Origin: Arenicellales bacterium
GTDB taxonomy: Bacteria; Pseudomonadota; Gammaproteobacteria; Arenicellales; JAHEKD01
Direction of reading: 5' to 3'
Length of the DNA stretch: 64,000 bases
NCBI GenBank assembly: GCA_028284225.1
Contig: JANQSD010000004.1
Span: 14,869-78,868, forward strand
In this document: positions 52,719 to 64,000 of the stretch, in pieces
Numbering within the stretch: the first letter of the stretch is position 1
Layout: each line of letters opens with the position of its first letter
Notes under the pieces: generated by a model
The model's database searches: none
Seen by the model: the letters and a program-made list of their open reading frames with translations, nothing else
What the model was told of the DNA's origin: nothing
Made by a program: the position numbers and the translations under genes

Positions 52719-53840
52719 TTAGCGAATCGTTTGCAACCTGTCGTGATTATCCAGTTTGGTTAGCAACAACTGCCAAACTTGCATTCGACCGGTTCTAAAG
52801 CCTGCGGCACTTACAAGTAAATAATATTCCCACATTCGATAAAAAACATCATCGTACTTATACTTAATCTGCTGCCAATTATTAACAAAATTATGGTACC
52901 AGGCCATTAAAGTTTTATCATAATCAGGGCCAAAACTATGGAGATCCTTGATCGATAAAATTTTCTCACTGGCACAAGTTAATTGAGCCAAAGATGGCAA
53001 CATTGAGTTAGGAAAGATGTACTTGTCTATCCAGGGATCGGTATGCTGTTCAGAAAAATTGTTACCAATTGTGTGCAATAAGAACAAACCGCCTGGTTTG
53101 AGACAACGTTCTACTACACGCATGAATTTTTGATAGTTCTTGTAACCCACATGCTCAACCATACCTACCGACGCTATTGCATCAAATTGGTCAACAGTCA
53201 ACTCACGATAGTCTTGTAGATTGATCTCAACAGGCAAATGCTGGCAACGCTGGCGGGCTAATATGGCCTGTTGCTCGGAGATGGTTATTCCTACGGCACT
53301 GACAGAATATTTCTCTGCGGCATATTTCACTAAACCACCCCAGCCACAGCCTATGTCAAGCAACTTCATACCTGCTTTAAGCCTGAGTTTTCGGCAAATA
53401 AGGTCAAGCTTTTTTTCCTGAGCCTGTTCCAATGTTTGCGCCTGATGCCAGTAACCGCAGCTATAGACCATTTTCGAATCAAGCATTAATTGATACAGCT
53501 CATTATCGATATCATAATGCTTTTGACCCACTGCAAATGCTCGGTTACGATTTTGTCGATTAAACAACCAGGATTTAACAGCAAGTAATTTTAGCGCCCA
53601 GGATGAGCTGATTTTTTCTTCAACATTTGACTTAAACAAACGTTCAAAAAATTCATCAAGCTTGTTGACTGTCCAGAGTTTTTGCATGTAGGTTTCACCT
53701 AGTGCCAGGCTCCCACCTGAAACAACCCTTGAATAAAAACCTTTATCCAATACCTGGATATCCCAGGGCCTAGAACCGTTAATGGTAATCCCTGCTTGTT
53801 GCGCCAAGTTTTTTACAAAAGATTCAGCAGTATTATTCAT
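52719..53840 (-). CDS. cfa: Cyclopropane fatty acyl phospholipid synthase
   Basis: HYDIDN, YSCGYW, LDIGCGWG, WIDKYIFP and RMWEYYL motifs. Confidence 0.92.
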   Translation of the reverse strand: MNNTAESFVKNLAQQAGITINGSRPWDIQVLDKGFYSRVVSGGSLALGETYMQKLWTVNKLDEFFERLFKSNVEEKISSSWALKLLAVKSWLFNRQNRNRAFAVGQKHYDIDNELYQLMLDSKMVYSCGYWHQAQTLEQAQEKKLDLICRKLRLKAGMKLLDIGCGWGGLVKYAAEKYSVSAVGITISEQQAILARQRCQHLPVEINLQDYRELTVDQFDAIASVGMVEHVGYKNYQKFMRVVERCLKPGGLFLLHTIGNNFSEQHTDPWIDKYIFPNSMLPSLAQLTCASEKILSIKDLHSFGPDYDKTLMAWYHNFVNNWQQIKYKYDDVFYRMWEYYLLVSAAGFRTGRMQVWQLLLTKLDNHDRLQTIR

Positions 53841-53930: not shown

Positions 53931-55787
53931 CTAAATAAGCAAGTTTTTTCTTTTACGCTGCCAAAGTTCATAGCACAAGCATTTCCATAACAGAATCAAG
54001 TCATAATCTTCAACAAATGGAGACTTTAACAGTGTTTCAATATAAGAAGTTTGTACGTATTCTGGCCACTTACAGGCCGGATCGAATAAGATATCGTATA
54101 CCAACTGACGATGTGTCTCGGTAAGTGATTTTCGAAATATCGAGTTGTATACTGTTGCCGTAGTCCGCTCGATCACTACCTCAGGAAGTAATGATTTCAT
54201 AGCATACCGCAATATAAATTTATGCTGATTTGTGTGTGGGTTATAAAATAAGAATGCCGGCAAATTTAAAGTAAATTCAACTAGAGCTCTATCTCTGAAA
54301 GGCATTAATGGTTTTAAATCATACCATCTCGCTTCTTCACTAATCCTCAAACTTAATGCCTGACTGTTAGAGTTAAAAACATGCTCATAACGGTCTCGCT
54401 CGAAACGATTAGAATCATCATGAAATAATTGATTGCTGTATTGTTTTAAATAATCAACAGCTTCAGTCGTCAAACATAAGTCAGGCTTTTGATGCCGCCA
54501 GCGAGATGTGATTCCGTTAAAGGGCAACAGACGACGAAGAACTGGATTTTTATAAAAGGGAACTGTCGAACGCTTTGACTCAATCGAGCAAGTGTTAACA
54601 AAACTACTTAATGATTGCCCAGAACGCATTAGATCACGAAGCCAATACCGATAGGCTCCAAATAAGTGATCTCCAAATTCACCGGTTAAAAAACATCGTC
54701 CGGCCTGCTGCCGAATAATCGGATAAGATTTACGTCGCTGATTAATCATTGGTGATAACCAGATATGATTAAGCGTACGATGCAAATGCTCCGGATCACC
54801 ACTCAGCGGCAAACATTCATCCGCATTCACATGTATATATTTAATAGAAAATTTTTTATATAGAGCACTAAGGTAGGACCGCTCATCACATTCCTTGAAT
54901 CGATCAAACACATGCGAAACAGCGATTAACTTTGAGCCGCTTTGATGAGCAACGGCTACAATACTGGTTGAGTCCAGGCCTCCACTCAATAGTATCGGCA
55001 CCTGGATATAAGGATCTGTTAATCGTTTAACTGCCCGTCCCAGTTTGACAGTAAATTCAGATGCAATCGTATCAATATCCGATTTATTCCGCGGCTTTAA
55101 TGGAAACGAGAAAAATCGTTTTAGTTTCGATCCTTTAGGAGTCAATTCCAGTACATGAGTGGACGGCAATCGACGAATTCCGTTAAATAATGTCCGTGTA
55201 ATATCAGCAGGTTGATCGTTAAAATATGCTGCAACTTGTGGCTTATTTTCCTCAAAAGCAGCAGAATTTTCATTATTGTCATTAAAACAAGCCTTGATAA
55301 TTGCTGTTTCGTCAGTTGTAATGATTGTGCTATCTGAGGTCTGGTGATAACAAAATGCCTGCTCACCCATCGGGTCAGAACATAGAACCAGACGACGATG
55401 CGGTATTTCATAAATTAAGCATAAGTAGCGACCATAGATTTTCTCAAACCAATTTGCCCCGTATTTTAGATACCCTTGTATAACCGCCTGCAATCCATTT
55501 TGATTCTGCTCGCGCATACTACTTGAAAAAGCAATATTATTAAGCTCATCGGGATTATCAATTTCCCCCTTAAACACCATCCATGCTTGCCTGTCATAGC
55601 TGCGCACAGGACAGAGATCATGCTTCTCATGCATCGCACTATATTTGACCCCGATACCGACTTGATCAAAGACAGCTGTACAGATGCCGGCTTGCGGTGC
55701 TCCATACAAGCAAGATGTTAAGCTTTCAAGCCGATGTTTATCTATAGAACGGCCATCTTGATGGTAAATTGCTGCCAACTTATACAT
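53931..55787 (-). CDS. Lasso cyclase-like asparagine synthetase homolog (no N-terminal Cys)
   Basis: LLSGGLDSTSI PP-loop, LTGEFGDHLF and PFRDRALVEF; N-terminus MYKLAAI lacks the Cys of MCGI; 43 nt downstream of a lasso-type precursor. Confidence 0.8.
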   Translation of the reverse strand: MYKLAAIYHQDGRSIDKHRLESLTSCLYGAPQAGICTAVFDQVGIGVKYSAMHEKHDLCPVRSYDRQAWMVFKGEIDNPDELNNIAFSSSMREQNQNGLQAVIQGYLKYGANWFEKIYGRYLCLIYEIPHRRLVLCSDPMGEQAFCYHQTSDSTIITTDETAIIKACFNDNNENSAAFEENKPQVAAYFNDQPADITRTLFNGIRRLPSTHVLELTPKGSKLKRFFSFPLKPRNKSDIDTIASEFTVKLGRAVKRLTDPYIQVPILLSGGLDSTSIVAVAHQSGSKLIAVSHVFDRFKECDERSYLSALYKKFSIKYIHVNADECLPLSGDPEHLHRTLNHIWLSPMINQRRKSYPIIRQQAGRCFLTGEFGDHLFGAYRYWLRDLMRSGQSLSSFVNTCSIESKRSTVPFYKNPVLRRLLPFNGITSRWRHQKPDLCLTTEAVDYLKQYSNQLFHDDSNRFERDRYEHVFNSNSQALSLRISEEARWYDLKPLMPFRDRALVEFTLNLPAFLFYNPHTNQHKFILRYAMKSLLPEVVIERTTATVYNSIFRKSLTETHRQLVYDILFDPACKWPEYVQTSYIETLLKSPFVEDYDLILLWKCLCYELWQRKRKNLLI

Positions 55788-55830
55788 AAACCCAATAGTA
55801 TAGTAATGGCAGCTTTATCGCTCATAATAT

Positions 55831-56004
55831 CTAAGTCAAACGTCGACTAACTGAATCCACGCCCAAACCCGACTGACCCAGTATCAATGTATGTAAATCA
55901 CCAATCTTGTTTAATCTCGGTGCCGTATACGGTTTTAATCGGTGCTTAGCTCGATTTATCGAGCCTGCTTTTGGTGCTTGTGCACCCATCAATGTCATAG
56001 ACAT
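55831..56004 (-). CDS. Lasso peptide-type precursor
   Basis: Leader motif YTAPRLNKIG (YxxPxLxxxG), then core GQSGLGVDSVSRRLT with Gly1 and Asp8; GGAGG 8 nt before ATG 56004 (TTG 56019 is an alternative start). Confidence 0.8.
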   Translation of the reverse strand: MSMTLMGAQAPKAGSINRAKHRLKPYTAPRLNKIGDLHTLILGQSGLGVDSVSRRLT

Positions 56005-56024
56005 CACCCTGTCCTCCAATTGTG

Positions 56025-59000
56025 TTACCCTCCTGTCTCTATTATTAATGCCGGATCTCCAATCAAGTTCCAGCCCAAAATTACATCCAGCTCATCACTA
56101 TGCGACTGTGCATGGGCTTGTTTGGCCTGAAGAATCGCCTCACCAATCGATTTTCCTGAAGTAAACATTCGCGGATACACTTGCTTGGCTAGTTCACGTT
56201 CATGGTCCGCTTCGGTCAAGGTACTGGCCCCCAACACCGCCGCCGCACCATTTAAATCATTCAACATGAACTGATGTGTCAAGGTGTCTTCGCTGGGATG
56301 CACATAATACGTATTCCAGCACCCCCATTGGGTGATCACCGTCGGTGATCCAGCATTCGTTAAGGCCGCTGCATCACCCGACTTGAATAACCCCGCAAAG
56401 GTCCAGTCCTGCGGTCCTGAATGCCCAAACATCCCCGCCACCGCCTGGCCTTGATTCAACGCCTCCAGCAAGGCACTACGGGCCGCACCTACTCCCAGCT
56501 CATCCATATATGCCCGCGTGATATTTTGTTGCCAGGTCCCGGGCAGTTCCGCTATGGTCATATCTGCATCCGTGCTGAACGAATAATTAGCCGCCTGATC
56601 TAATTCATCCACCGCCATCACCAACGATCTTGGATTCGGGTGAGATGCATACTGCAAGGTCTTGGTCACACTGTTGGCCCACTCCTGCGTGGTGCGCGGA
56701 ATCATTCGACCAATCGACATGTCCGGCACATCATCATCGTCTACGTCCGCATACTTACTGTCCGACGGCGCATGATAGATCCGATCACTGGTCTGCACAT
56801 ACAATGACGGCATAAAACTCATTGACCCGGTATTTAAATGATCATGATAATCATAGGTATCCGCCCCCACCAATAACACCATCTCGGTACCCAGATTCGC
56901 ATGCGCCCAATGGATATAACGCTGGATCGCATCAGCTCCAAAATGCCCATGACCAAAGGCACTGTACACCGCCTCAACATCCGCCACCTTGGTGCTATAG
57001 CCTTGACCCTGACGGGCTGCGATCAAGGCCTCCATATGCTCATCGATAAAATCAGGATGACTGATCACCAAATACTGTGCATTGCCGGTGAGTAAATCTT
57101 GCTGTTCCACCGGATCCACAAATTCGACCTGTTTTAATCCACTTACTAAACTCACGTAATAAGTGGATTCTTCCACCACATCACCGGCAAACCGTAATCG
57201 ATATTTCCCGTCTGCATACAACGGCATCCACACCTTAGTTAAGGATTCAAACTCACCGTTGGGCCGTTTACGGTACACTCGCCGGTTTAACACCCCTGGT
57301 TGAAAGGCCTCATAGCCCTGTACCTGTAAGCGTGCATCCTGGGAACTGAAGATCAATTGCTCGGTATCACTGTCCACGATTAACCTGCGCGGATAACTCA
57401 CCGACCAGGTATCCGTATGTACAATCGAGGCCACCTGATCTTCAGGCAAAGGATTCGTTACTGTCACTTTGACATGATTCAATCCCTCAACTAACGCTGC
57501 TGTCGTGGTCTGCCCGCTGATGGTCTGCGCTGTAAACCCATTAAAGTCCGATGTCCCGACCGCATAATCATTCAACTGCACATCCACATGATGATCACCG
57601 GCAAATCCACCCCACACGCCCGCATTCACACTCACCGGTCCCGACAGGATATGATCGACCTGAATCGGGAACAATGTACTCACCGGGTTATCCGTCGACA
57701 CAATCCGCCGCGCATACCACGGATCAGCCACCGAGGCGGCCGGGGAATAAAACACATCATAATCCATCTCAACCGTGGCGGTATAGCGTGTGGTCACCGG
57801 AGCGGCAATACTGTTCGGGTTAGTCTCGTCATACACCATGGATTTACGTTTATAAAAATCTTCGTATAAGACATAAATAGAATCTTGGCTATACAGTGTA
57901 TCTGCTTCATCGGCGACAAATTCAATCCAGCCGCCCGGCCCGAAGTACCAGCGCTGTTCACGGATTGTAGAGGTTTGGCCTTTACTGCGCACATCCACCG
58001 ACTCGCCGTTGTGCATTAAGGCCAAGCGCCAGTGTTTGACTCCCGTCAAGTCAATCCCCTGGGCCAGCAGTTGTTCGTACGTTACTCGGTAAATCCCCGG
58101 CTCAGATGTCTTGAAGTAAATCAACCCCGGGTCGGTTACCGGCTCAACACTAGCCTGGGCACTGGGCACCAGTGCCAACAGCATTGCACCAATCAGGCGT
58201 GAATGCCAGCTTGAGGCTGGAGGAGATTGGTTCGAGGACTGCGAGGTGCCGTTCCGCTTCAGAGCCTTCTGCTCCAGGCGCTGCTTTCGTTTAAGGGTGC
58301 GTCGCATCTGTTGTTCACCTTGGTCTAAGCGTTGTTCCATCTGTTTCATCCGCTGGGCCCGGCGCGCTTCACGTTTGGCCTTGCGGACCGCTTTTTTTGC
58401 ATTACTTTGCTGGTGGATTGTCGACCAGTCGATTGGATTACGATCCGTTCGGTCAACGCCGTGCTGTTGTCCCAGCTTAAACGGTCCACGGATGGTCTCT
58501 TGACCGAAGATATCCACATCACCAATCGCAAAAAGGCTTACTACTGGCCCGACGGATACATACTCATATTTTTGCAGTTCAACCGAATCACCCACTGGCG
58601 AAACAATCAACGCACTGTTGAGTCGCTGCCAGTCTTCACTTTTAGCTTTACCGTACAAGTTAAAGCCCGCATTGCCCGATTCGATCACCGTCTGCCAACG
58701 AATCGTAATCTCACCCACATTGACACCGCGTTCGGCATGAAAATAACCCAAGGTGATAGGATTCGTCACTGCCGGTGGATCCTGAAATCCAAAATTAGCC
58801 TGTGGTGTATCACCCAGATTCTGCGCCGGAAAGGAAACAGAACCGGTCGGGTTCTCTGTGCCCGTGTGGCCGTCAACTATGGTACCGCTGGGATCCACTG
58901 TCGCTATTAATGGCATACCAGTGGGTATCGAAATACTATAGGTTCCATCAGGGGCTGTAGTCGTTGTCAGAGTAACTGTCGTGCTGCTGGGCAGAGTATA

Positions 59001-62000
59001 AGTCATAGCAATGGTTGCGCCGGGAACACCGACATCGGCACCATCAAACGTACTATTACTGGATGTTGCATCACCTTCATCGTATACCATTCCCGTCAAG
59101 GTCAAAGCACCTCTAACCGCAAAGTCCACTGTATAGTTCGGCGAGGTCGTAATTACTTTCCAATATAGACTTGGATCGATCACTGAGCCATCTGTCGGCA
59201 ACTGGGTAGCCAACATCGTTTCGACAGACATCGCATTACTGTTATCAGGATCATTTGCTGTACCATCACGTGGAGTTTGCGGAATGGTTGCATCAATAAA
59301 ATCAGAGAGCACACCTTTTTCGTCAGTGATGCGTACAAAATACGTACCTGTCGGCACCCCTTCACAATAGTACTCCCCATTTTCATTGGTTTGTACTTCA
59401 CGAATCAGGTTGTCTACACTATCAACTCGAAATACACCATCATTATCAGTATCGTACCAACACTGGACAGTAACACCGGCCAGACCTACATCACCTTGTT
59501 CAGGATTAAATAGCCCATCATTGGTTGCCGCATCGTCTAACCATATCAAGTTACCTATTGATCCAAGATTCTGTTCTGGTGAATAACCAAAATCAATATC
59601 TGTTGTGGTATTGCCCGCCGTAACAGTCGCAAAGGTCAATCCACCCATCATTTCTGTTTCATTTAAACCAATAGTGGCATTATTTGTATCACTGACTTCA
59701 ACAATATAATCACCTGGAAGGACACCAGTGAAACTGTAGTCACCGTTTTCATCTGTAGTTACAGTAGCAATTACACTCTCATCGCCATCAGAACATGTAC
59801 CCGTTCCACAAGACACAAGATTTAATGTCACCAGCTCTATTCCCGGCTCAGTGTCATCATTACTATTGGCATTCAAATCCAGATACACAGTTCCTTCGAT
59901 TGCTCCCGGGCCAGCTGCGGAAGAATCCGGACCAAAACCAAAATCTAGATCAGTAACAATGTCTCCTGGAGTAACACTTAAATCCGGGCCACCGCTGGAT
60001 GTCATATCCGCTAATACATATTGTTGATCATTTGCACCATCACCATCTATATCACCGGTGTTGGTCGGCTCAGTTGCATCCAACACCGATGGTATATCAC
60101 CAGTGTTGTATGAGACATAATAATCACTGCCCGCGGGATCCGGTGTTACACTTACATTCCAGGTCCCATCAGGGTTGGTTGTGGTATTGGCTACAATTGT
60201 GCTCGTTGCATCGCGAACGATCACTATCACATTACCTAATCCGATTTCACTAGTATCTTGAATTCCACTGGAATTGGCATCACTCCATATCGTCCCACTT
60301 AACAATGTCATTGTAGAAGCAGAGACAAAACCAAATTCCTCATGCTTTTGTTGACCTTCACTCAGGCTGATCACCGCACTTGGGTTGACACCGGCAGGAT
60401 AAATCGTTTCAACAATACCCGCCGGGAAGTCAGGATCACTCTCGTCCGGATCCAGTTGATAATTGCCTGCCGGCAAATCAGGAAAAATTACATTGCCAAC
60501 TGCGTCTGTACTGGTCGTTTGTGTTGGACCATCATCTGCGTTACCACAATTTCCATCATTACCACAATCCAGCAATTGAATATCAACAGCTGTTATGGGT
60601 TGCTCACCAGGATCTTTAATTCCATCCTGATTAGTATCTATCCATAAAGCACTGGTAATCGCTGCCGTCTGCTCGTTATCTACATAACCGAAATCTACGT
60701 CCGTTACATCACCTGCATTCAAATCAGCCTGAGCAACCGGCAGTTGATCAAGACCGCTGGTGAGCGTATAACCGTCTAATACGTTATTTGTATCTGTTAT
60801 GGCGACGGTGTAATCAGCGGGTACTACATTGGGGAATATATAATCACCATTACTATCTGTAACAGTAGTAGCCACTACATTGCCTATACTATCTAGCAGA
60901 GCAACGCTAACGTCGGTTAAACCTGTCTCATCATCACTATTACCTGCTAAACCATCGTTGCCAGCCGGCTCATGAGTACCATCGGTATCAACATCATAAA
61001 ATACTGTTCCTGAGATATTGGGCAAAGACGTATTTTGATAACCAAAGTCTTGATTCAGGTTACTGTTACCGGGTGCTAAAGGCAGACTTGACTGATTATC
61101 ACTTGCTCCTGCACCATCGTCTGCATCATATGTCTGTATATAACCTTCTAAGGCACCACCACTGGAAAAGTTATTCGCATCGACAGTAACCGTATAATTC
61201 AAACCATCTGCTACATTCATAAATAGATAATTACCGCTTGCATCGGTAGTTGCTACCAGATTAACTGGGTTACCAGAGCTATCATTACCGGTTAGTGTCA
61301 AGGTAACGCCTGATATACCGCTTTCTCCCGGGTCTTGCACACCATCAGCATTCGCATCATTCCAAACCCTGTCACCGATCATACCGGGTTGGTTAAACCC
61401 AAAGCTTGGATGCCCATTACCAGAACCATTGGTAATCGGCGCTGATTGTGCTGGATCCTGATTAGTGATGTCCCCAGTTAATGCAGTTATCGACTGCTGT
61501 AATAGTGAAGCCGGCACCGTAGTATCAAAGTAGCCTGTCAGTTCGCTGTTATCATCAGTAATCGATATGGTGTAGCCACCATTTGATAAACCAGTAAAAG
61601 CAAAATCACCATTCGAATCTGTCACCACACTGGCAATAATCAGCCCTCCACTATCCAACAGATCAACCGTGACATTTCCGATACCGGGCTCACTCACATC
61701 CTGCACACCATCACCATCTGCGTCGTACCATAATCGGTCTGATAATGTCGAACCGGGTTGCAAGGCAAATCCAAAATCGGCGTCTACATAAATGTCACCG
61801 GATAATATCGTGATCGGGTCACTGATCAATGAACCCGGACTTTGTGGGCCGCTGGTTACATTCGTGGCCGCATCTGTAATAACACCGCCAGTATCCGTCA
61901 CGACAACGCTGTAATCCCCCGGTAATACGTTCGTGAACAGGTAATTCCCGGCAGCATCTGTAGTTGTCGTATCAATCACTGCCCCAGAGGAATTTAATAA

Positions 62001-64000
62001 GTTCAAGCTTACACCTGCTATACCAACCTCACCGGGATCTTGACTTCCATCGGCATCCACATCTGACCAAACTGTATCACCAATTACAGCTGTACCCACT
62101 ACAGGAACATAACCAAAATCTGCGTCCAGAAAGTTCTCACCAGCTGATAACACCACGTTTTCCGTACCGGTATTACCTGGTGATTGAGTTAAGTTAGCTA
62201 ACTCACTGTTCGTATCTGTTACTGTAACTGTGTAGTTACCCGGTGCTAAATTATCAAACAGATAATCTCCGTTAGCATCTGTTATGGTGTTCAAGTTAAC
62301 TGGATTACCGCCAGCATCCGTTCCGGTCAAATTCACTGTTACACCTGCGATACCCTGTTCGCCAACATCGTCCACACCATCGCTATCAGTATCCAACCAG
62401 ATATGATCACCAATAGACCCGCCAGCCACCATGCCTGCATCAACATCTGTATTTATCTCTCCAATAGCCAATGTGATTGTGGACGTGCGGCCATTGGTTA
62501 CTGATACGTCGCTGTCCAGATCATCAGAGGTCTGATCTTGAGGGGAGAATACATATCCCACAGGAGTAAAAAACTCAAGCTGATAATCACCGGAATCTAA
62601 ACTCACAAATTCATAATAACCTGCCTCACCTGTAGTTGGGTTTGGACCCGTAGTAGTTGTTGAAATCACTGCTCCACCACTATCCAGCAGATTCACTGTC
62701 ACTCCATTTATACCCACTTCCCCACTGTCTTGAATGCCGTTACCATTGCCGTCATTCCAGACAAAATCGCCTATACCTGCAAATGCCTGATAGCCAAAGT
62801 CCTGCACCAGGTTATCTTCACCGGCTCCGAGTACCACCACACTCTGTGATTCAGTACCCCCATCCGGGTCCACCGTGTTATTGCCTTGCAATACTAACGG
62901 CAAGTCCGTTTCATCCACCGCCACCGTATAGCCGGTTGCATTGCTTTGCGGCACATCCATAAATAAATACTGCCCGTCACCGGCCGTGGTCACGGTCACG
63001 TTAATTGGATTGCCGTTAACGTCCGTGCCGGTTAAAGTGACATCGACCCCAGCAAGCCCTTCACCGGTGTCAAAGACACCGTCACCGTCCAGATCGTTGA
63101 AAATGGTGTCACCGATTGAGCCTAAGGCTTGATAACCGAAATCCTGAGCCAAGTTATCCTCACCCGCACCGAGTACCACCGTACTGGTCGAGTCATTCCC
63201 CCCATCCGGGTCTACCGTGTTATTACCCTGTAGCACTAACGGTAAATCGGTTTCATCCACCGTCACTGTATAGCCCGACGCATCACTTTGCGGTAGATTT
63301 GGAAATAAATACTGCCCGTCACCGGCTGTCGTTACGGTCACGTTAATCGGATTGCCGTTGATGTCCGTACCGGTTAAGGTCACGTCCACGCCGGCAAGCC
63401 CTTCACCGGTGTCAAAGACACCGTCACCGTCCAGGTCATTGAAAATGGTATCCCCGATTGAACCCAAGGCTTGATAACCAAAGTCCTGCACCAGGTTATC
63501 TTCACCGGTTCCTAAGACCACCACACTCTGTGATTCGGTGCCGCCATCCGGGTCCACCGTGTTATTACCTTGCAATACTAACGGCAAGTCCGTTTCATCC
63601 ACCGTCACCGTATAGCCGGTTGCATTGCTTTGCGGTAAATTTGAGAATAAATACTGCCCGTCACCGGCCGTGGTCACGGCCACGTTAATCGGATTGCCGT
63701 TAACGTCCGTGCCGGTTAAAGTGACATCGACCCCAGCAAGCCCTTCACCGGCATCAAAGGTACCGTCTCCATCCAAATCATTGAAAATGGTATCGCCGAT
63801 TGAACCCAAAGCTTGATAACCAAAGTCCTGAGCCAGATTATCTTCACCGGCGCCGAGCACCACCACGCTCTGTGATTCGATACTCCCATCCGGGTCCACC
63901 GTGTTATTGCCTTGCAATACTAACGGCAAGTCCGTTTCATCTACGGTCACCGTGTAGCCGGTTGCATTGCTTTGCGGTAAATTTGAGAATAGATACTGGC
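56025..64000 (-). CDS. Giant SdrD-B-like repeat surface protein with C-terminal C25 cysteine peptidase (5' end outside the window)
   Basis: Frame stays open to the window edge; repeated (S)IGD.(V/I)W.D.D.DG..D.GE.G...DFGY domains; C25 features YLVISH, LLVGAD, IGRM, FGHS (His), WGCWN (Cys), NLIGDP. Confidence 0.88.
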   Translation of the reverse strand, partial: QYLFSNLPQSNATGYTVTVDETDLPLVLQGNNTVDPDGSIESQSVVVLGAGEDNLAQDFGYQALGSIGDTIFNDLDGDGTFDAGEGLAGVDVTLTGTDVNGNPINVAVTTAGDGQYLFSNLPQSNATGYTVTVDETDLPLVLQGNNTVDPDGGTESQSVVVLGTGEDNLVQDFGYQALGSIGDTIFNDLDGDGVFDTGEGLAGVDVTLTGTDINGNPINVTVTTAGDGQYLFPNLPQSDASGYTVTVDETDLPLVLQGNNTVDPDGGNDSTSTVVLGAGEDNLAQDFGYQALGSIGDTIFNDLDGDGVFDTGEGLAGVDVTLTGTDVNGNPINVTVTTAGDGQYLFMDVPQSNATGYTVAVDETDLPLVLQGNNTVDPDGGTESQSVVVLGAGEDNLVQDFGYQAFAGIGDFVWNDGNGNGIQDSGEVGINGVTVNLLDSGGAVISTTTTGPNPTTGEAGYYEFVSLDSGDYQLEFFTPVGYVFSPQDQTSDDLDSDVSVTNGRTSTITLAIGEINTDVDAGMVAGGSIGDHIWLDTDSDGVDDVGEQGIAGVTVNLTGTDAGGNPVNLNTITDANGDYLFDNLAPGNYTVTVTDTNSELANLTQSPGNTGTENVVLSAGENFLDADFGYVPVVGTAVIGDTVWSDVDADGSQDPGEVGIAGVSLNLLNSSGAVIDTTTTDAAGNYLFTNVLPGDYSVVVTDTGGVITDAATNVTSGPQSPGSLISDPITILSGDIYVDADFGFALQPGSTLSDRLWYDADGDGVQDVSEPGIGNVTVDLLDSGGLIIASVVTDSNGDFAFTGLSNGGYTISITDDNSELTGYFDTTVPASLLQQSITALTGDITNQDPAQSAPITNGSGNGHPSFGFNQPGMIGDRVWNDANADGVQDPGESGISGVTLTLTGNDSSGNPVNLVATTDASGNYLFMNVADGLNYTVTVDANNFSSGGALEGYIQTYDADDGAGASDNQSSLPLAPGNSNLNQDFGYQNTSLPNISGTVFYDVDTDGTHEPAGNDGLAGNSDDETGLTDVSVALLDSIGNVVATTVTDSNGDYIFPNVVPADYTVAITDTNNVLDGYTLTSGLDQLPVAQADLNAGDVTDVDFGYVDNEQTAAITSALWIDTNQDGIKDPGEQPITAVDIQLLDCGNDGNCGNADDGPTQTTSTDAVGNVIFPDLPAGNYQLDPDESDPDFPAGIVETIYPAGVNPSAVISLSEGQQKHEEFGFVSASTMTLLSGTIWSDANSSGIQDTSEIGLGNVIVIVRDATSTIVANTTTNPDGTWNVSVTPDPAGSDYYVSYNTGDIPSVLDATEPTNTGDIDGDGANDQQYVLADMTSSGGPDLSVTPGDIVTDLDFGFGPDSSAAGPGAIEGTVYLDLNANSNDDTEPGIELVTLNLVSCGTGTCSDGDESVIATVTTDENGDYSFTGVLPGDYIVEVSDTNNATIGLNETEMMGGLTFATVTAGNTTTDIDFGYSPEQNLGSIGNLIWLDDAATNDGLFNPEQGDVGLAGVTVQCWYDTDNDGVFRVDSVDNLIREVQTNENGEYYCEGVPTGTYFVRITDEKGVLSDFIDATIPQTPRDGTANDPDNSNAMSVETMLATQLPTDGSVIDPSLYWKVITTSPNYTVDFAVRGALTLTGMVYDEGDATSSNSTFDGADVGVPGATIAMTYTLPSSTTVTLTTTTAPDGTYSISIPTGMPLIATVDPSGTIVDGHTGTENPTGSVSFPAQNLGDTPQANFGFQDPPAVTNPITLGYFHAERGVNVGEITIRWQTVIESGNAGFNLYGKAKSEDWQRLNSALIVSPVGDSVELQKYEYVSVGPVVSLFAIGDVDIFGQETIRGPFKLGQQHGVDRTDRNPIDWSTIHQQSNAKKAVRKAKREARRAQRMKQMEQRLDQGEQQMRRTLKRKQRLEQKALKRNGTSQSSNQSPPASSWHSRLIGAMLLALVPSAQASVEPVTDPGLIYFKTSEPGIYRVTYEQLLAQGIDLTGVKHWRLALMHNGESVDVRSKGQTSTIREQRWYFGPGGWIEFVADEADTLYSQDSIYVLYEDFYKRKSMVYDETNPNSIAAPVTTRYTATVEMDYDVFYSPAASVADPWYARRIVSTDNPVSTLFPIQVDHILSGPVSVNAGVWGGFAGDHHVDVQLNDYAVGTSDFNGFTAQTISGQTTTAALVEGLNHVKVTVTNPLPEDQVASIVHTDTWSVSYPRRLIVDSDTEQLIFSSQDARLQVQGYEAFQPGVLNRRVYRKRPNGEFESLTKVWMPLYADGKYRLRFAGDVVEESTYYVSLVSGLKQVEFVDPVEQQDLLTGNAQYLVISHPDFIDEHMEALIAARQGQGYSTKVADVEAVYSAFGHGHFGADAIQRYIHWAHANLGTEMVLLVGADTYDYHDHLNTGSMSFMPSLYVQTSDRIYHAPSDSKYADVDDDDVPDMSIGRMIPRTTQEWANSVTKTLQYASHPNPRSLVMAVDELDQAANYSFSTDADMTIAELPGTWQQNITRAYMDELGVGAARSALLEALNQGQAVAGMFGHSGPQDWTFAGLFKSGDAAALTNAGSPTVITQWGCWNTYYVHPSEDTLTHQFMLNDLNGAAAVLGASTLTEADHERELAKQVYPRMFTSGKSIGEAILQAKQAHAQSHSDELDVILGWNLIGDPALIIETGG
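62787..64000 (-). repeat. 342-bp (114-aa) near-identical tandem repeats, at least 3.5 copies
   Basis: ALGSIGDTIFNDLDGDG...QDFGYQ recurs every 114 aa; opposite-strand shadow ORFs recur at 342 and 684 nt offsets. Confidence 0.95.

Follow-up and report, generated by a model that had tools for sequence, protein, structure and literature searches.

A lasso-type precursor and cyclase gene recurrently placed beside genes for giant surface-type proteins with a PorU-like C25 protease

In a 64,000-nucleotide stretch of the genome of an Arenicellales bacterium (hereafter the window), three consecutive, co-oriented minus-strand genes encode a giant secreted repeat protein that terminates in a C25 peptidase, a lasso-type precursor peptide and an AsnB homolog devoid of the glutaminase cysteine. 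Genes of lasso peptide biosynthesis are likewise found directly downstream of related C25 genes in several phyla. We tentatively propose, with a probability of about 0.4, that the three genes constitute a conserved unit in which a phosphorylated lasso peptide, matured in trans, acts as a bound partner and governs how the giant protein is processed or displayed.

The giant gene (56025..64000, minus strand) is open at the window edge but is whole in the genome, where it comprises 3305 codons and begins at window-equivalent position 65942, outside the window (window-equivalent 56025-65942; C12:70893-80810 of the source genome, G000). Upstream of it are ∼640 nt without a long ORF and then a divergent ORF of 330 aa. 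Downstream, the precursor gene has two candidate starts, located 5 nt (TTG, 62 aa) and 20 nt (ATG, 57 aa) after the giant-gene stop codon, of which the latter (55831..56004, minus strand) is favoured because a GGAGG sequence stands 8 nt ahead of the ATG. The gene for the AsnB homolog (53931..55787, minus strand; 618 aa) starts 43 nt beyond the precursor stop and is followed by a cfa-like gene (52719..53840, minus strand), assigned by Pfam to the CMAS family of methyltransferases, which forms the downstream boundary and lies outside the module. The tight spacing of the three genes and the nature of the gene that follows them are as the first-pass annotation of the window had described. Terminator-like sites on the minus strand were absent from both gene junctions in a site scan, which placed one inside the cyclase gene; a promoter scan of the locus remained at the level of shuffled sequence (12 versus 10). 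Further along contig C12, beyond the window (∼90040-92033), are two adjacent ORFs that we take to resemble ATP-grasp RiPP ligases.

The giant protein has a hydrophobic, signal-like N-terminus followed by DUF11 and about 14-15 SdrD-B-type repeats, with 13 SdrD_B stretches recognized by Pfam in the part within the window, and ends in a module that joins a domain we call PVTL to the protease. PVTL is a 120-residue beta-sandwich (58416..58781, minus strand) without a Pfam or NCBIfam match, which opens with T-N-P-I-T-L and represents a candidate self-cleavage or sorting domain; the Pro and Thr of its P-[VI]-T opening are present in 57 of 58 aligned homologs, and the domain is found mostly in cis with C25. 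Next come a long basic helix and a hydrophobic relic resembling a signal peptide (58152..58415, minus strand), beta domains similar in sequence and fold to the N-terminal domains of PorU (57081..58142, minus strand), and the C25 catalytic domain (56028..57080, minus strand), which matches Pfam Peptidase_C25 with 189 bits (cut-off 23) and whose catalytic His (56421-56423) and Cys (56319-56321) are invariant in 58/58 aligned sequences. In several relatives the passenger stops after the basic helix, and its stop codon is overlapped by an independent C25 gene with a signal of its own; since these relatives keep the pair split, the giant gene of the window looks like a fusion of a passenger gene with a C25 gene. 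PVTL and C25 are predicted as a single confident model (pLDDT 90.6, pTM 0.90). The nearest named look-alikes of PVTL carry a type IX C-terminal domain (score 0.87), which we treat as a lead only. The idea that PVTL marks proteins throughout the genome for sorting by a housekeeping sortase found no support: of 11 matches in five genomes, eight lie inside C25 fusions and three in proteins that are small or have a membrane tail. The source genome has a further family of PVTL-C25 genes, present in multiple copies and broken at the ends of contigs C9, C10, C13, C14, C18, and C24 and at the starts of C6, C23, and C25; behind its three C25 ends lies a common non-coding element that contains an inverted repeat, and not a precursor. 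In another genome (G361; loci L235-L237), small PVTL-like proteins have PqqD and kinase genes as neighbours, and the gene directly after a C25 gene encodes a signal peptidase I-like domain joined to PVTL and to a membrane tail.

PorU (PDB 6ZA2; PMC4560394) is the best match to the protease both in sequence (E 4e-28) and in fold (E 2e-26), and the two share the N-terminal domains and the C25 His and Cys. They differ in that the protease described here is fused or adjacent to its own passenger and in that Arg722 of PorU aligns to a Thr. The NCBIfam PorU model NF033707 gives the window protein a score of 127 against a cut-off of 420, and the protease is, as judged from its sequence, PorU-like in build rather than classed as PorU. 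The gingipains RgpB and Kgp, also of the C25 family, share the catalytic fold and dyad and the Thr at the PorU Arg722 position, but here the match spans the catalytic part only and the protease is C-terminal, behind adhesin repeats. The Asp of the gingipain Arg pocket does not appear conserved in the window C25. No match to PorV was obtained in the source genome, which is 96% complete, while a control search matched in Bacteroides; a search for type IX C-terminal domains matched nowhere and is hence uninformative.

The 57-aa precursor consists of a leader (55879-56004), which carries the YxxPxL motif and has Ile, not Thr, at position -2, and a 15-aa core (55834-55878) with Gly1, Ser3, Asp8, and Ser9. 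The core fits the lasso rule in starting with Gly1 and in having an Asp at 8, within positions 7-9, and Ser3 together with Ile(-2) agrees with the Ser/Thr3 plus Ile/Val(-2) pattern of the bsf type described below; there is no Lys, and the seven-residue tail offers only Arg and Leu as possible plugs. No NCBIfam model matches the window precursor, and 28 of 34 aligned relatives match NF033521. When the genome was searched with a profile built from 30 of these 34 precursors, its own genus excluded, the window precursor ranked second among 87,301 segments (E 2e-5); the other two of the top three are located behind a second giant C25 gene and beside a second cyclase gene, respectively. Across 96 candidate precursors, a set that includes a few false regex matches, the ring is Gly-rich, with Gly1 in 86, Ser/Thr3 in 89, Asp/Glu8 in 82, and Ser9 in 75. 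Up to seven precursors occur in the genome of a congener (G003:C1; L215, L216, L259, L260, and L282), several of them among IS-like genes, and identical precursor pairs in this genome suggest recent mobilisation. In L181 (3805-5916) a cyclase and a precursor motif share one 703-codon frame, which is either a natural fusion or an assembly error.

The AsnB-fold protein is a lasso cyclase homolog in which the SGGLDS motif is intact. The Cys at the glutaminase position is absent both from it and from 47/47 relatives, with SGG-DS kept, and is retained by the two true AsnB proteins of the same genome. Its best NCBIfam match is NF033535, at 153 bits against a cut-off of 525, and a PDB search returned only a weak match of AsnB fold. 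As had been noticed from the window, no B1 or B2 gene lies beside these genes, and genome-wide searches of the kind then recommended placed both on other contigs. The genome has one canonical B2 (C1:143186), with Cys and His intact and an NF033537 score of 73.8 bits (cut-off 33), and three PqqD genes, among which C1:9176 is the copy closest to the lasso-type B1 of intact clusters (46% identical to one of them, though below the NCBIfam lasso cut-offs). It also encodes three HPr-like kinases, four nucleotidyltransferases and the second cyclase; the off-locus kinase C6:55799 has the motifs of BsfK and is the closest of the three to the cluster kinases. With B1, B2, and kinase genes elsewhere in the same genome, the lasso pathway is complete though dispersed, and would act in trans. 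Other RiPP-like arrangements were encountered in these genomes. At C1:534-10580 of the source genome, the lasso-type PqqD gene and a convergent nucleotidyltransferase gene come after the gene for an SdrD-B-type giant of 2849 aa that lacks C25, and the frameshifted ortholog of this giant in G002 has a divergent precursor, a PqqD fusion, a kinase, and a cyclase. A separate cassette (C1:184299-187485) comprises a nucleotidyltransferase, PqqD, and a kinase fused to GT2; no adjoining precursor was found. A gene resembling arginine methyltransferases (PRMT-like) recurs in the cassettes of L117, L119, L149, L205, and L207, and a gene for type II secretion protein C, possibly a dedicated export adaptor, lies within two cassettes (L223:9587-10315; G035:C12:1662-2063).

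By its motifs and by the published description, the cassette resembles the bsf type of Bradymonas sediminis (BsfA/K/B1/B2/C/D/N; PMC10368454), in which BsfK phosphorylates Ser3 and BsfB1/B2 accept Ile(-2). Common to both are the YxxPxL leader, Ile(-2), Gly1, Asp8, Ser3, the split B1/B2, an HPr-like kinase with His, GxxGxGKS, and DD motifs, and a nucleotidyltransferase in the genome, whereas in the source genome the genes are scattered and the precursor is associated with a giant C25 gene, and no ABC exporter turned up among the neighbouring ORFs scanned. In that report, the mature bsf lasso is stated never to have been detected, and an FG-GAP repeat gene adjoining the cluster is presumed by the authors to be unrelated. 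The kinase-type clusters of pseudomycoidin and paeninodin (PMC6993621) share the kinase, the split B protein, and an NTP transferase, but as described there the modified residue is a C-terminal Ser and the clusters include an ABC transporter, whereas the cores considered here conserve Ser3 and Ser9. The same source reports that the nucleotidyltransferase PsmN is needed for hexose addition to phospho-Ser, and that neither peptide showed antibacterial activity. A match to the WgkC model was set aside, the accessible description being that of an unrelated radical-SAM RiPP.

Linkage of C25 and lasso genes was examined in loci fetched for the best 80 of 167 metagenome matches, in 79 from the best 80 of 426 GTDB matches, and in 30 from relatives. 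After the source genome had been removed and loci collapsed at 90% identity, 124 of 150 were of the same clade, with 700 nt or more of downstream sequence. A lasso gene is located within 600 nt downstream of C25 in 81 of these 124 non-redundant loci, this gene being a cyclase in 53, a precursor in 19, and another lasso gene in 9, and is absent from that interval in 43, all from the same best-match samples and relatives. By source, linkage was found in 37 of 54 metagenome loci (best 80 of 167, the query being the window sequence alone), 46 of 66 GTDB loci (best 80 of 426, with a query alignment enriched for linked loci), and 6 of 17 loci from relatives. By our own arithmetic (16 such genes in 4.09 Mb), the chance of a lasso gene is ∼0.2% per 600 nt. 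By their labels, the linked loci come from Pseudomonadota, Acidobacteriota, Chloroflexota, Myxococcota, and Planctomycetota; they differ in gene order, the commonest order being giant, cyclase, precursor, kinase, B1, B2. In the GTDB sample (from the best 80 of 426 matches), a cyclase is present in 42 of 56 loci with at least 6 kb downstream, and these 42 include a kinase in 34, a precursor in 34, B1 in 21, and B2 in 21, as labelled with our own profiles, which undercount GC-rich loci. The co-occurrence of C25 plus SdrD-B proteins with lasso genes, which the first-pass annotation had put forward as a check, thus holds strongly and across phyla in these best-match samples. Since it does, the accompanying suggestion that this is a surface-protein system rather than an antibiotic cluster, and hence that the lasso peptide has a surface-protein-linked role, is a reasonable one.

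Over 33 loci, conservation is higher for C25 (53%) than for the cyclase or the kinase (36%). In a quick tree of C25 domains, from which L116 was excluded for its short domain, sequences cluster by phylum and linked loci are spread across the tree, with seven of 13 unlinked rows falling in one clade. The best hint that the peptide, and not only the cassette, is tied to the protease gene comes from orphan precursors that follow C25 genes. A paralogous giant on contig C10 of the source genome has a different passenger and a module 79% identical to that of the window, and is accompanied by its own precursor and no cyclase; in the congener G003, an orphan precursor stands at the stop of each of two giants that belong to a more distant C25 clade. 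Three distant-clade C25 genes in the source genome have no precursor behind them, and the closest cyclase in G003, together with its precursor, is situated among IS-like genes with no giant there. No fusion of C25 with a lasso gene was found among 62 long homologs.

Counts at the level of whole genomes, with Fisher values that overstate the association because related genomes are not independent and both genes are more often present in larger genomes, gave C25 with B2 in 21 of 60 relatives, C25 only in 3, B2 only in 4 (one of which was later found by Pfam to have C25), and neither in 32; in an even sample of the class, with one genome unscored, B2 was present in 6 of 8 C25-positive and 13 of 291 C25-negative genomes, and the precursor family in five genomes, four of them with C25. 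A B2 gene was found elsewhere in 10/10 tested genomes with an unlinked C25 locus (10 of 12 such genomes; one match weak), and in six of the ten it belongs to a precursor-kinase-B2 cassette with the same ring motif. Exceptions occur in both directions, three genomes (G021, G035, and G043) having peptide genes and no C25 match and two (G030 and G053) having C25 and no B2 or precursor match.

From the gene anatomy, the intact catalytic motifs, the full lasso gene set of the genome and the linkage across phyla, we infer a mechanism in which the PorU-like C25 of the giant adhesin-like protein probably processes its own passenger. By analogy with bsf, an HPr-like kinase would mark Ser3 of the precursor together with B1, B1/B2 would remove the leader by cutting after Ile-Leu, and the cyclase would join Gly1 to Asp8. 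C25, by analogy with PorU, would cut near T-N-P-I-T-L. The mature peptide may then leave the cytoplasm by some route and bind the PVTL-C25 module, and, once bound, may gate self-cleavage or display of the passenger. Several points speak against this reading. The peptide would be made in the cytoplasm and the protease exported, yet no exporter, including the ABC type, was found in a scan of 54 neighbouring ORFs, taken out of 71 candidates in 30 loci; the exceptions listed above indicate that coupling is not obligatory; and conservation of the ring could reflect the needs of kinase and cyclase alone. A broader formulation, which we regard as possible but speculative, is a display system independent of type IX secretion and present in multiple phyla, in which an adhesin-borne PorU-like protease cuts at PVTL and a phospho-(glyco)-lasso serves as the anchor or the switch.

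The main alternative, distinctly possible if not likely, is that an ordinary bsf-type lasso peptide with a function in signalling or defence is retained near genes of surface colonisation because they are expressed or transferred together, and makes no contact with the protease. The variability of partners is consistent with such chemical independence, the cassettes also flanking giants without C25 (G035, G059, G002, and G117) and TonB receptors and occurring in IS neighbourhoods, as are the exceptions in both directions and the presence of canonical B1/B2; shared ancestry of one operon could, moreover, yield the genome-level pattern, and the C25 tree clusters by phylum. Independence accounts less readily for orphan precursors copied along with C25 genes in two C25 clades, for the same ring motif being retained where the loci are apart and for an adjacency that survives several gene orders.

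It is improbable, in our estimation, that C25 acts as a sortase, cleaving at the boundary of PVTL and attaching the passenger covalently either to the peptide or to a peptide-phosphate-glycan, which would substitute for the A-LPS anchor used by type IX systems. PorU, the N-terminal domains of which are covered by the match, is the best relative of the protease in sequence and fold, and PorU-type transpeptidation is described as transfer onto amines, often Gly, with Gly-initiated peptides accepted (PMC4560394). A glycan-bearing acceptor would be in keeping with the hexose that PsmN adds to phospho-Ser (PMC6993621), with the NTP_transf_5 gene adjoining the best-matching kinase gene, and with sugar transferase and Wzc-like neighbours in three clusters, and one precursor per C25 gene fits stoichiometric use. 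The earlier proposal that the Gly-initiated core is the transpeptidation acceptor is nevertheless weak, because closure of the Gly1-Asp8 ring would consume the only amine of a core without Lys and because Arg722 of PorU aligns to Thr; the low NF033707 score and the occurrence of a nucleotidyltransferase in only 8 of 56 GTDB loci (from the best 80 of 426 matches) also count against an anchor.

Rather improbable, too, is that the cassette assists quite generally in exporting or modifying giant secreted repeat proteins, on which C25 is merely the commonest tail. Such a function would explain the cassettes that flank SdrD-B giants without C25, the PqqD and nucleotidyltransferase genes that follow the C25-less giant of the source genome, and the type II secretion protein C gene in cassettes of G020 and G035, but the cores beside C25-less giants are often divergent, the C25 proteins linked to lasso genes bear very different passengers and no mechanism is known. 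The idea that C25 replaces B2 as leader peptidase, raised earlier on the absence of B1/B2 beside the window genes, is very improbable and was rejected, because the genome encodes an intact B2, a B1, and a matching kinase at other sites and B2 lies within 21 of the 42 cyclase-bearing loci (best 80 of 426 GTDB matches), the giant protein having in addition a signal-like start and Ile(-2) being processed by BsfB1/B2 (PMC10368454).

Both halves of the unit proposed here, in which the lasso peptide is a bound partner of the protease, have known relatives, the bsf-type lasso peptides and the PorU-like C25 proteins, and it is their pairing that appears to be new; no description of it was found in the literature searched, the coverage of which leaves most subscription journals outside. 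We know of no native job for kinase-type lasso peptides, and a conserved genetic partner gives a concrete target for testing their native role. The pairing would, in addition, assign a role to PorU-like C25 proteins outside Bacteroidota and define an unnamed C-terminal module (PVTL, helix, C25) common to very different surface proteins of little-studied phyla. If the display system outlined above is real, the lasso peptide would be the first RiPP to serve as a functional component of the cell envelope.
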